DNA of 14,997 bases from a virus (IMGVR_UViG_2874915312_000006); one strand, 5' to 3'. Shown: positions 5,813 through 11,580, counted from the first letter of the stretch. Numbers and translations: made by a program. Notes: generated by a model not told the origin, from the sequence alone.

Positions 5813-6011
5813 ATTCTTTGGCATTTTTTACCTCGTTACGCGCGTCTGTGGCTTTGCCAACGGATACTTCCGCGTGCGCACGAGTGAACCAGTGCGTGGC
5901 AACGTCTTCCTCCACAACATGACGGCCTTTAACAAACTCGCGCCGAGAACCGTCGGGAAGCGTGAGCACAAACGGGGTATGTACGTGTATTACTGCATCA
6001 TTTTTTGCCAT
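5813..6011 (-). pseudogene. Phage gene immediately downstream of major capsid, 3' end truncated by IS600 (66 phage-derived codons)
   Basis: ATG at 6009-6011 is preceded by AAGGA at good spacing. The frame (MAKNDAVIHVHTPFVLTLPDGSRREFVKGRHVVEEDVATHWFTRAHAEVSVGKATDARNEVKNAKEL) runs into IS600 at 5812, after which the track ORF continues in IS-derived sequence. Confidence 0.5.
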
Positions 6012-6026
6012 CGGGTCATCCTTAAT

Positions 6027-6043
6027 GGCCCCGCCAGGGGGCC
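6027..6043 (-). promoter_or_regulatory. Intergenic stem-loop between the capsid gene and the next gene
   Basis: GGCCCC-GCCAG-GGGGCC (6-bp stem, 5-nt loop), with no U-run after it on the transcribed strand. Possible RNA processing or stability element. Confidence 0.3.
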
Positions 6044-6052
6044 ATGTGGCTG

Positions 6053-6994
6053 TTAAATGCCATCAACGTACGAAATGGTTTCTTTGTACACTGGCTCGAC
6101 TGCACCCAGCTTGCCGTAGTAAGTGACGATCTGATACAGACCGCGATACTGCACCGGCACGCTCTGAAGCGGAACCAGCGGGTAGCGGACGTATTTTTTA
6201 TCGTTGGTGTACGCAACCATACGATCCTTATTCCCCACACCACGGCCTTTCAGCCATTTAACCGCGCGGATATTCAGCGGAACACCGTTCTGGTGATAGC
6301 TGATGGTGTTGGTCTGAAGGTACGTCAACAGGGACTGGTTACCTGCAGATGAAACGATGATGCTGGACAACAGAGCAAACTGCTCAGGCGGGATCAGCAA
6401 ATCACGCGGAACCACAGAGTAACCAGAAGCGGCCCACGCATCAGACAGCACCTGGTTAATGCTTGCGCGGATTTCGTCCGGTGTTGAGGTTGCCCACGTT
6501 TTGGCAGCGTTGTTGACAGGCACGCCGTCCAGGGTAACAAGGCCTTTCAGGTTTAATGCGGAATCGCCAACATATACCTGTTCATCGTTATCCATCTGCC
6601 ATTTCAGTTGCATACCGTCATACTTCTGCGTATCAATCGGGCGGCCGACCTGCTGAGCAGCCTGCAATTCTATGACCGTCCAGCCAAGTTCCATCCCCCA
6701 CAGGTTCAGCGGGTTACCGGATTTGCCGATATCCACGTTCACGCCAGCAATAGCGGTTGAGTCTTTGCCTACCCAGTTTTTTCCATTCGGATTTGCGCCA
6801 GTACCCGCAGCGGCGAAGCTGGTATTCGTCCAGCTGGAAATGTCATCTGCGATGGAGACGTCTTCACGCAGTTGAATATCGCGGCTCCAGGTGTACCCCA
6901 CCAGTGGCAGGTTCAGCGTCTGGTCGAGTCGCTCCAGCTCCCCGATGAGAAAGGCACCAGAGCTGTCAACGGTTGCCTGATCAAAAGTAATCAT
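6053..6994 (-). CDS. Putative phage major capsid protein (313 aa)
   Basis: Position as the last large gene of a portal / F-like / scaffold / small-structural-protein operon, and its size. Good SD (AGGAACAG) 11 nt after the upstream stop. Assigned by synteny, not by a recognised motif. Confidence 0.55.
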   Translation of the reverse strand: MITFDQATVDSSGAFLIGELERLDQTLNLPLVGYTWSRDIQLREDVSIADDISSWTNTSFAAAGTGANPNGKNWVGKDSTAIAGVNVDIGKSGNPLNLWGMELGWTVIELQAAQQVGRPIDTQKYDGMQLKWQMDNDEQVYVGDSALNLKGLVTLDGVPVNNAAKTWATSTPDEIRASINQVLSDAWAASGYSVVPRDLLIPPEQFALLSSIIVSSAGNQSLLTYLQTNTISYHQNGVPLNIRAVKWLKGRGVGNKDRMVAYTNDKKYVRYPLVPLQSVPVQYRGLYQIVTYYGKLGAVEPVYKETISYVDGI

Positions 6995-8736: not shown

Positions 8737-8739
8737 GGG

Positions 8740-9522
8740 TTATGCTGCCCTTTTCATTGCGAATGGAACGCGAACAAACACGATCTCTTTATAGCAGCGG
8801 CAGTTTGGCAGCTCGCCCGCGTGGCCGGTCATGCCGTCCAAAGTTGGAGGTGAATCCCAGCGGACGAATTTACCTTTCATGTGATCGTGGGAATCTCGGA
8901 CATCGCCATCATCGGCTGTACGCCAAATATAACCATCCGAGCCAATAGCTATCGCTCGGGCCATATCCAGCGCGCCCGTTGCTCTTCCCAGTTCCGTTCG
9001 GGCAATCAGATCGGCCCTAGACTTAGCAACATCGCCGGTAGATGCAATCTCTTTAGCAAACTGCTCCGCCCGACCACCGGTGACAACAGCCTCTATCGCT
9101 TTGTTCTGGATGTCGTACACCCTGTCTGCGGCCTCGAGAGGCAGAGATTTGATGTACTTGACCTGTTCGGCGATGATGGATTGCATCACCTGGCCCACAG
9201 GAGCGCTTTCCACAAGATTGCGGAGCTCGCGACTGATGTTCTTGCTGTGTTGCCGCCAAACTTTCTCGTTCTGCCGGGTTAGGTCCGCAGTAAAGTTTTC
9301 CGCGACCTTTGTCGCCCAGGGGGTGATGATTTCACTGTAACGCTCCAGCGCCGCAATAATTTCCGTGATACTGTCATTTGAACCATCGTAGCGACCATTT
9401 ACGATGTCTCCGACCGCCCTCGCTATCCTGCGTAGGCTGGTTCGATACCGGATTTCCGCCTGACGGCTCCTGCGGTTCGTCATCAGGTTCGCCGATGCCG
9501 GGCGGCGCTTCATCTTCGGCAT
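8740..9522 (-). CDS. Phage head morphogenesis protein (Mu gpF / SPP1 gp7-like minor head protein)
   Basis: Contains ...ADLIARTELGRATG..., which I recall as characteristic of the Mu-F-like family. Lies immediately downstream of the portal gene. The exact start is uncertain because the 5' end overlaps the portal 3' end. Confidence 0.65.
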   Translation of the reverse strand: MPKMKRRPASANLMTNRRSRQAEIRYRTSLRRIARAVGDIVNGRYDGSNDSITEIIAALERYSEIITPWATKVAENFTADLTRQNEKVWRQHSKNISRELRNLVESAPVGQVMQSIIAEQVKYIKSLPLEAADRVYDIQNKAIEAVVTGGRAEQFAKEIASTGDVAKSRADLIARTELGRATGALDMARAIAIGSDGYIWRTADDGDVRDSHDHMKGKFVRWDSPPTLDGMTGHAGELPNCRCYKEIVFVRVPFAMKRAA

Positions 9523-10840
9523 TCTCGATGTCCTCGTCGGTAATGGATGCCCCGATGCCGGTTACGTCAGAATTTTCTCGCAAATCAGTCATAGCGGCTT
9601 TCAGTGTCATCAGACCATCACCCAGCGCCGTACTGATTGCGTTGGTGGTGTTTAACGCCACCGTTGAGCGATCGACATCAGACATTTGCCAGAGCGGGTT
9701 AAACTCAAACGTGAAATCGTCCGGCAGCGGCTTGCCAAGTTCCGAACGATGCATGATGTCCAGTATCCGCCGCACCGGAAGACGTAAACGCCTCTCCTGC
9801 AACGAACTGATGCGATCGTAATAGTTGGCAAGGTCTGCATCACCGGTAGAAAATCCTTTCGGGGACTGTCCGAACAACCGCACCAGTGGGATACCAACAG
9901 CGCCACTAATCTGTTCTGCAAACTGCGAAAGGATGTCATCCAGACCACTGAAGCTGTACTGATGGGTTTCAAACTTATCCCGCGAGTCCATGAGCGTCAT
10001 GCCTTCATTACTCTGGAACTGTCGAATCAGGTCGATATTCTTCAGCAACGCTTCATACGCAGGACCACCAAGTGCGATAAGCTCGCGTAGCTTCTCCACG
10101 CTGTAGGTACGCAAATGCGCCTTGTAGACCAGCTGCGCCGCGCCGACAGTAGCGCTGTCGAACGCGGTAAGACGATCCCAGATACGCTCTACAACCGACA
10201 TTCCCCATTCGTTCTCGGTCATCTTCTGCTGAAATGGCAACGTGACGCCATCAAAGCGAATCAGGCGACTGTGATGAATGCGCCAGGCAGGAATTCCCGT
10301 TGCTGTGGTCACCACATCGTAAAACTCAGGTTTACCCAGGTCCGGCCCCATATCTTTAATGCGGCGGGTCAGTGCCGGGTCGACCATCCAGCGGTCGAGC
10401 GGGAGAATCCCCTTAAACTTGCCCTTACCGATGGTTTCGGGTCGCAGCGGGGTCATTGGTGCCTGCCCCTCAATCATGATGAAACCCACCGCGCCGCCGT
10501 AGAGGCGCGACCATTTCAGCACGTCATTCAGCGCATCCCAGATTTGCAACTCATCCAGTTGTGATTCGAGAATGCCACGATCTTTTGCATCAATTTCCGA
10601 AGTGATGCGAATGCCTTTGCGGGTCATATCATCCGGGATAGCATCGACTGCTTCGCCGATGATCCAGGATGAACGATAGGACCATTCCACCAGCATGCGG
10701 TTACGACTGGTGAAATTAGCCCGGCAGGTGGATGCTGAGTGCTGGTTAGGTGTCTGCATCCCTACGCGGGCAATAAAATTCTCATAACCATCAGCTGTGG
10801 CCTGCACAGTTCGCCGCAGGGCTTGTTTGTTTCGTGCCAT
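9374..10840 (-). CDS. Phage portal protein (488 aa)
   Basis: Size, acidic C-terminal tail (DEDIENAEDEAPPGIGEPDDEPQEP), position directly after the large terminase, and start ATG overlapping the terminase stop (TGATG). Confidence 0.7.
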   Translation of the reverse strand: MARNKQALRRTVQATADGYENFIARVGMQTPNQHSASTCRANFTSRNRMLVEWSYRSSWIIGEAVDAIPDDMTRKGIRITSEIDAKDRGILESQLDELQIWDALNDVLKWSRLYGGAVGFIMIEGQAPMTPLRPETIGKGKFKGILPLDRWMVDPALTRRIKDMGPDLGKPEFYDVVTTATGIPAWRIHHSRLIRFDGVTLPFQQKMTENEWGMSVVERIWDRLTAFDSATVGAAQLVYKAHLRTYSVEKLRELIALGGPAYEALLKNIDLIRQFQSNEGMTLMDSRDKFETHQYSFSGLDDILSQFAEQISGAVGIPLVRLFGQSPKGFSTGDADLANYYDRISSLQERRLRLPVRRILDIMHRSELGKPLPDDFTFEFNPLWQMSDVDRSTVALNTTNAISTALGDGLMTLKAAMTDLRENSDVTGIGASITDEDIENAEDEAPPGIGEPDDEPQEPSGGNPVSNQPTQDSEGGRRHRKWSLRWFK

Positions 10841-11580
10841 CAGGCCTGTCTCCCCAGCTGTTCCCAGATATCCAGCGATGTATCGATTGGCGCGAAGGCC
10901 ATAATGAATGCATCAGCAACGTTTGGTGACGGTATCTCGCGTTTTGCGAGGTCTTTTTTACTTTCGACCATCACACGTCCGTTACGGTCGAAATCACGAT
11001 GAGGTGTTGTCAGTTCCAGTTTCAGCTTTTCAAGCAACGGACAACGAGAATCTATGCTGATCAGCTCATCCACAGGATACTGTTCTCCGTTGTTAATGGC
11101 GTTAAACGTATTTCTGAAACGGTCAGCCACCAGCCACCATGCCTGAGCCTTAAGATTTGCGAAAAAGTCTTTGTTGGGGATGCCGTTGTACTCGTCATCT
11201 GGCTCATGCACACCAGCACCGGCGTTAAACCTCTGGTAATTCACACGTCGCGCGTATGCGTTCTCGCTCTTCCGGTCAGCGTTAATTTCAGAGAATTTAG
11301 CACCGGCAGACGCACCAACACCGATAGAGTCGTAAACAATATCTGCTTCACGCTCCAGCGCCGCCTGATAAGTACGCTGGCAGCTCTTCAGTAATTCATC
11401 TTCTTTGGCCTTCCATTCGTCGGCCCAGAAAACAACGGATCCGTGACGGTAAACGTTAGCGCACTTATCTGTACCACTGTCAGCCACGTCAAAGCCAATA
11501 CGCTTTCTTCCACTGGGTTCGAAATTTAACGTTTTGTGCGCATCCACTGCGGCTTCTATCCAAGACAGTTTGATGATTGC
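10840..11580 (-). pseudogene. Terminase large subunit, C-terminal nuclease-domain fragment; N-terminal ATPase part removed at the IS2 junction
   Basis: Translation (...IGFDVADSGTDKCANVY...KDLAKREIPSPNVADAFIMAFAP...) resembles a terminase nuclease domain. The frame runs straight into IS2 at 11581, so the first ~9 residues of the track ORF are IS2-encoded and there is no Walker-A/ATPase region. Confidence 0.7.

Follow-up and report, generated by a model that had tools for sequence, protein, structure and literature searches.

The stretch of viral DNA examined here (IMGVR_UViG_2874915312_000006; "the window" below denotes the whole 14,997 nucleotides) is 100% identical across all its bases to CP026803.1, the chromosome of Shigella flexneri strain 89-141, serotype Y (PMC9455713), and is a prophage island riddled with insertion sequences (IS). 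Its most conspicuous part is a block of minus-strand phage head genes at 5813-11580, which is very probably a passive, non-functional remnant of a lambdoid, contractile-tailed temperate phage common in Escherichia coli. In this reading, the five complete head genes of the block (those for the portal, Mu-F-like, DUF2213, cement and capsid proteins) are intact in 89-141 only because very few mutations, namely two substitutions on its lineage, have hit them since the prophage was disrupted. The element itself is an ordinary decaying cryptic prophage, whose head genes have carried the annotation "putative bacteriophage protein" since the first S. flexneri genomes (2a 301, 2457T and 5 8401). A preliminary description, made from the sequence alone, had correctly pictured an IS-wrecked prophage and had placed the head genes at coordinates that coincide exactly with the stretch between IS600 and IS2. 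It left two explanations for their intactness, either very recent IS insertions or retention of the head genes for some reason. The block and the two elements that bound it are composed as follows.

4549-5812, plus strand: IS600, 1264 bp, 99.9% identical to annotated IS600
5813-11580, minus-strand genes: head block, the exact stretch between IS600 and IS2, comprising the next seven entries
5813-6011, minus strand: STY1053-family small phage gene (NF047914), codons 1-66 of 73, cut by IS600
6053-6994, minus strand: major capsid protein, 313 amino acids (aa), PF09950, assigned by homology to the HK97-fold family of Pam3 type
7006-7512, minus strand: cement/decoration protein, 168 aa, PF23982 and PF22758
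7516-8736, minus strand: DUF2213/Pa193-gp24-family protein, 406 aa, PF09979
8740-9483, minus strand: Mu-F-like head morphogenesis protein, 247 aa, PF04233, phrog_324; annotated with 744 nt in prophage VL40
9374-10840, minus strand: portal, 488 aa, full length, PF06381/DUF1073, phrog_146
10840-11580, minus strand: C-terminal terL fragment, 246 of 467 codons, PBSX-family large terminase, N-terminal ATPase half gone
11581-12899, minus strand: second IS2 copy of the window, 1319 bp, lying within terL and oriented like the head genes

All five head genes are uninterrupted, as had been claimed, and lie on the minus strand, running at full length, without gaps relative to the E. coli prophage VL40 and with the lengths seen in intact prophages. 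The claim of tight coupling holds as well. The terL stop codon shares 1 nt with the portal start, the annotated Mu-F start lies inside the portal gene (an overlap of 110 nt), and the following spacers measure 3, 3 and 11 nt, the last one separating the cement gene from the capsid gene, while 41 nt separate the capsid gene from the STY1053-family gene. The DUF2213 and cement genes are separated by TAA alone, within the A-run GGGTAAAAAATG (window 7512-7518), where one of the compared loci (L016) has a 1-bp deletion; two rare 576-aa metagenome proteins (P0122 and P0132) carry the DUF2213 and cement domains together.

Both ends of the block are broken genes, which the preliminary description had also recognized. 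The large terminase gene, intact at 1404 nt in two other loci (L001 and L003), is cut at 11580/11581 by the end of IS2, and its open reading frame (ORF) continues from IS2 as a 255-aa fusion (10840-11607). The terL fragment matches the phrog_2 terminase large subunit, and its Terminase_3C match is weak, below the Pfam cut-off. At the other end, the STY1053-family gene runs into IS600 as an 81-aa fusion (5766-6011), compared with 73 aa in intact homologues.

The assignments proposed earlier, i.e. portal, F-like, scaffold-like, small structural (the cement protein) and capsid, were right according to both Pfam and PHROG matches. Pfam E-values of 3.3e-106 for the portal, 6.8e-88 for the capsid, 2.8e-42 for DUF2213, 4e-30 for the cement protein and 1.5e-18 for Mu F place these homology-based identities far beyond chance, and the PHROG matches agree. 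The capsid protein scores 294.7 bits with PF09950 against a cut-off of 26.8, and matches the Pam3 major capsid protein (PDB 8HDT, chain 8hdt_A) with E=4.8e-19. As Pam3 gp7 has the canonical HK97 fold (PMC9942802), the suggested check of the 313-aa protein for a capsid fold comes out positive at the level of sequence, and the protein is assigned to the HK97-fold-family capsids of Pam3 type. The cement protein, with 105 bits for PF23982 and 76.6 bits for PF22758 (the cut-off being 27 for both), falls into the E217 gp24 / Pam3 gp6 / XM1 gp53 families, and its gene is found directly upstream of the capsid gene. Membership of the 406-aa protein in the DUF2213 family is clear (PF09979, 145 bits). 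This family is now named after Pa193 gp24, a putative scaffolding protein in a phage with the gene order scaffold, decoration, capsid (PMC11456595). Related PHROGs are labelled head maturation protease, in contrast to the "putative scaffolding" label of Pa193 gp24. From family membership and synteny, the DUF2213 protein is thus a putative scaffold, possibly with an N-terminal protease-like domain. Its AlphaFold2 model was unusable (mean pLDDT 43.4 and pTM 0.27, from a 36-sequence alignment at 76-98% identity), and PDB sequence and profile searches with the DUF2213 and cement proteins returned nothing meaningful.

In regard to the origin of the block, it aligns from end to end by BLAST with the complete E. 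coli prophage VL40 at 99.86% identity, differing by 8 substitutions over 5768 nt and requiring no gaps, and five of these eight differences cluster at the STY1053 end. The end-to-end alignment with another complete E. coli prophage, CE0021a, has 96.4% identity. Furthermore, a query with 5700-11700, which covers the block and short IS flanks, is matched over at least 80% of its length in 308 E. coli genomes, and the phage genomes vB_EcoM-611R5 and vB_EcoM-689R2 contain the same head module at ~95% identity. Compared with the layout of an intact prophage, IS600 stands where the neck, tail and baseplate genes would occupy ~17 kb. The earlier statement that no tail genes are present is accurate for sheath, tube and baseplate, but has to be corrected for a tail-fibre-assembly-like pseudogene at 3930-4548, on the other side of IS600, which is the sole tail-related sequence to remain.

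The IS600 and IS2 junctions are base-for-base identical in all ten S. flexneri loci sampled (L004-L013, including strain 5 8401), and are common to the lineages 2a 301/2457T, 5 8401/5a M90T and serotype Y 89-141. The 81-aa STY1053-IS600 fusion protein, which marks the IS600 junction, was found on 461 contigs and is annotated in S. flexneri, including 2457T. Beyond the junctions, the outer flanks of the ten loci consist, on one side, of a Mu-like remnant followed by dcuC, pagP and lipA and, on the other side, of the terL 5' half, terS and dedA, and in them IS2 is simply inserted, with a duplication of its 5-bp target GCAAT. In the window, the sequences that adjoin IS2 in these loci (the terL 5' half, terS and the lysis genes) have given way to IS1 and 42 bp of AT-rich DNA. 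Since the junctions are common to all sampled loci, the IS insertions predate the split of the lineage of the window from the other sampled S. flexneri, while the differing outer flanks point to later IS-mediated rearrangements, which fits the high, IS-driven rearrangement rates typical of Shigella (PMC8072062). The possibility that IS2 and IS600 very recently hit an otherwise functional prophage in a single strain, although it would explain the 99.86% identity to a complete E. coli prophage, is almost certainly wrong, being already refuted by the same two junctions in S. flexneri 2a, 5/5a and other genomes, by the wide occurrence of the fusion protein, and by outer flanks that have since been rearranged lineage by lineage. 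What remains of the suggestion of very recent insertions is the short mutational time, as only ~0.03-0.2% divergence has accumulated since; the insertions themselves are shared across S. flexneri and are not strain-specific.

From the shared junctions and the differing flanks we infer the following order of events. A S. flexneri ancestor would have carried the prophage. IS2 would then have inserted into the large terminase gene, and IS600 would have taken the place of the whole stretch that began with the last 7 codons of the STY1053-family gene and extended through the tail genes. IS-mediated rearrangements would afterwards have altered the outer flanks, differently in each lineage.

Orthologous copies of the remnant show neutral-looking decay. 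In nine of the ten S. flexneri loci, the cement gene has a 17-bp deletion (window 7149-7165) whose frameshift leaves a 118-aa product, and a 7-bp slipped-repeat deletion reduces the terL fragment to a 179-aa product, again in nine of ten. Each of these two products is present on at least 1000 contigs, including those of S. flexneri 2a 301, whereas the undeleted 255-aa terL-IS2 fusion, the type of 8401, M90T and 89-141, is present on 71. Strain 8401 is devoid of both deletions, yet has the 7 substitutions common to the ten S. flexneri loci, and the deletions are therefore younger than these substitutions. There may also be a 102-aa allele of the cement protein (P0035). Decay is seen even in the own lineage of the window, where a 1-bp deletion in a draft genome (L017) cuts Mu F to 201 aa; Mu F is also truncated in E. 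coli FDAARGOS_943, by a W209* stop.

The intactness of the block in 89-141 has to be viewed against the number of mutations that could have destroyed it. Only 2 substitutions are specific to the lineage of the window, the portal change Y39C and one synonymous change in the capsid gene. If ~3.4% of random substitutions create stops and the indel-to-substitution ratio is 0.1-0.2, the probability of no disruption under pure neutrality with two such substitutions is 0.63-0.77. ORF integrity is thus not evidence of retention, because so few mutations occurred on this lineage. Across the Shigella-remnant branches, 11 nonsynonymous and 7 synonymous substitutions were counted (omega ~0.48), which, at such small counts, does not differ from neutrality (p=0.16). 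Two intact E. coli prophages, on the other hand, differ by 60.5 nonsynonymous and 134.5 synonymous changes (omega 0.14), and the contrast in the nonsynonymous to synonymous ratio (N:S) between the Shigella branches and the intact prophages (Fisher p=0.016) shows that selection on the Shigella remnant is relaxed. The spectrum of substitutions in the block, for which the window was compared with L004-L023, is also uneven, with 10 of the 19 on the Shigella-remnant branches being G:C>T:A transversions, compared with 1 of 9 segregating sites in ~5.5 kb of flanking chromosome (Fisher p=0.049, small numbers). Such an excess could stem from oxidative damage or a mutator-like process, or simply from transversions that went unfiltered in a neutral region.

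The second explanation offered in the preliminary description, retention, would mean that the head genes benefit the host and are kept by selection, at a minimum in the lineages of 89-141, 8401 and M90T. The benefit might lie in capsid-like compartments, in aid to a satellite or transducing particle, or in superinfection interference. We regard this as very unlikely. Intact copies of all five ORFs in the lineage of the window and in 8401/M90T do speak for it, as does the short branch of the window, with 2 substitutions against 10-11 in sister strains. A further point is that a Tn-seq/CRISPRi study (transposon sequencing and CRISPR interference) found the prophage DUF2213 domain of BCAM1066 in Burkholderia cenocepacia "putatively essential" (PMC8770471). 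This is an odd finding for a phage head-assembly protein, and our guess is that it reflects a polar or prophage-related effect. Opposed to retention are the cement frameshift in most S. flexneri, the Mu F frameshift within the own lineage of the window and the relaxed N:S of 11:7. Moreover, of the seven substitutions that the ten other S. flexneri loci have in common, four alter amino acids of the portal, scaffold and capsid proteins, the coding strand upstream of the block showed no promoter-like site, and the window contains neither the terminase ATPase domain nor a small-terminase gene. With regard to what would characterize a domesticated element, we found neither complete packaging machinery in the window nor purifying selection and intact ORFs throughout the host lineage, while collinear homology to a complete phage, loss of virion functions and decay in orthologues, as in a cryptic prophage, were all present.

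Several observations nevertheless do not sit easily with passive decay. Since the shared IS insertions, the branch leading to the window has gained 2 substitutions, as opposed to 10-11 in sister S. flexneri (binomial p=0.02). The Shigella omega of ~0.5 is numerically below 1, though the counts are small. In addition, S. flexneri diversity in the head block equals that of ~5.5 kb of flanking chromosome (9 vs 9 segregating sites) and is not higher. The last comparison leaves out one locus (L007, GCA_048288395.1) because of its aberrantly divergent backbone. Its flank from dcuC to lipA (14690-20246) has more than 200 differences in 5.5 kb and fragmented gene calls, probably an assembly error or import, while its head block is identical to those of the other S. 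flexneri loci. The short 89-141 branch could result from a varying rate, from weak constraint or from recombination with a VL40-like phage, and the simplest reading is that the ancestral state was kept.

Recombination would imply that the 89-141 remnant was partly overwritten by an intact VL40-like phage, which erased the damage and kept the IS junctions. The window block is indeed nearer to VL40, with the 8 differences given above, than to the other S. flexneri copies, with 12-13 differences and 2 deletions. Related phages also appear to visit these genomes, as some S. flexneri have, on contigs of 15-22 kb, another capsid allele of this family that diverges slightly (P0064, P0068 and P0069), which suggests another related prophage copy in those strains. 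However, the ten other S. flexneri loci agree on a differing base at 7 sites, and at each of these the window matches every E. coli outgroup, so ancestral retention suffices without an extra event, and the missing deletions are accounted for by their younger age, as seen in 8401. We consider such an overwriting very unlikely, and prefer the reading of a passive remnant.

Loss of function is in accordance with a passive remnant. Within the window, we found no terminase ATPase domain, terS, lysis, neck, sheath, tube or baseplate genes, and no Q/late promoter. With the small terminase, the ATPase domain of the large one, the neck, the tail and the Q-dependent late promoter all missing from the window, the head genes cannot give rise to infectious or DNA-filled particles. 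A scan for consensus promoters gave a total number of sites at chance level, and counts in the promoter and terminator scan of the window were at or below chance. A term search of the main text of a S. flexneri 2a proteomics paper (PMC9264714) gave no detection of these head proteins. The remnant is probably not expressed. It is conceivable, with a probability that we would put near the bottom of the scale, that the head module of 89-141 and 8401/M90T is expressed, e.g. by read-through from the co-oriented IS2, and weakly maintained via empty procapsid-like shells or a host-beneficial DUF2213 protein. If true, this would explain the unusually short 89-141 branch.

The locus could serve as a calibration point, as an operon so closely packed and unbroken, within a prophage shredded by IS elements, mimics selection, while here the small number of mutations fully explains its intactness and the sister strains show the expected neutral decay. 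Had retention been true, a major human pathogen would have provided a new example of domesticated prophage head genes, but the evidence does not support it.

The remaining parts of the island, on both sides of the block and its two bounding elements, are the following.

1-542, minus strand: prophage integrase stub, cut by an IS2 copy; in another locus (L014) the integrase adjoins ybhC
543-1873, plus strand: IS2 copy, 1331 bp, cutting the integrase fragment
2093-3343, minus strand: IS911, 99% identical to annotated IS911
3367-3750, plus strand: ipaH fragment with the C-terminal NEL domain; NF046045 IpaH_Shig, E=5.9e-76, profile positions 134-247 only
3930-4548, minus strand: tail-fibre-assembly-like remnant (DUF4376), PF14301, phrog_1141/7703, with an in-frame stop
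12942-13710, strand unassigned: IS1 copy, preceded by 42 bp of AT-rich DNA after IS2
13739-13975, plus strand: 78-aa ORF beside the SymE-like ORF, no family match
14030-14359, minus strand: SymE-toxin-like ORF, 109 aa, between IS1 and ybgA

The IpaH E3 ligase is reduced in the window to its last 114 residues, the NEL domain, and because IS911 cuts the gene, the ipaH copy of this island is a pseudogene in strain 89-141. Directly left of IS600, the tail-fibre-assembly-like gene has an in-frame stop after ~45 codons that leaves a C-terminal ORF of 125 aa, and its matches to phrog_1141/7703 are confined to the C-terminal two thirds of those profiles. The two IS2 copies of the window differ by 3 mismatches and 5 gaps (1319 bp at 11581-12899 vs 1331 bp at 543-1873), with transposase ORFs that still read through in both, and the orthologous IS2 in other S. 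flexneri has the full length of 1331 bp. An independent IS2 is found in terL of E. coli FDAARGOS_943 (L002, 12993-14315), in the same orientation and ~225 bp upstream of the Shigella site. Such repeated insertion may reflect a target preference of IS2 or coincidence. The exact SymE-like protein sequence was found on 18 contigs and is restricted to the lineage of the window, and for this reason it offers no shared backbone for a divergence baseline against S. flexneri 2a.

Among known systems, the E. coli lambdoid myovirus-type prophages VL40 and CE0021a have the same head-gene order and lengths as the window, terL-portal-Mu F-DUF2213-cement-MCP-STY1053 (MCP, major capsid protein). Across E. 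coli prophages and deposited phages (vB_EcoM-611R5, -689R2, -683R1 and -606R2), identity of the head module is 95-99.9%, and the more distant phages Salmonella SEN34, Citrobacter Omnitron and Hafnia yong1 have the same module at 79-85%. Complete relatives also contain the terL ATPase half, terS, lysis genes, Q, neck, sheath, tube, baseplate and fibres, none of which is present in the window. Likeness extends further to Pam3, whose gp7, the HK97-fold protein of PDB 8HDT, is a sequence homologue of the capsid protein, to E217, Pam3 and XM1, whose gp24, gp6 and gp53 families include the cement protein, and to Pa193, with its DUF2213 family and the order of scaffold, decoration and capsid genes. 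These phages, however, are distant, matched by profile or at low identity, and are virulent or cyanobacterial rather than enterobacterial lambdoid prophages.

Capsid-forming phage-inducible chromosomal islands (PICIs), gene transfer agents (GTAs) and domesticated head-only elements bear a superficial likeness to the window in having a cluster of head genes without tail genes. Unlike PICIs and GTAs, the block has no complete terminase, small terminase, integrase of its own, or regulation or replication module, its boundaries are IS ends and not att sites, its close relatives are full tailed phages, and no purifying selection was detected on it. Assignment as a capsid-forming PICI or GTA was rejected on the grounds of the incomplete terminase, the IS-end boundaries and the full-phage relatives.

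Finally, the window resembles the IS-eroded remnants associated with ipaH in Shigella, in which a prophage fragment has been rearranged by IS2, IS600, IS911 and IS1 near an ipaH fragment and an integrase stub. Copies of ipaH have been reported amid prophages and pseudogenes (PMC9046306). From IS-eroded cryptic Shigella prophages the window shows no essential difference, and it represents one such remnant.

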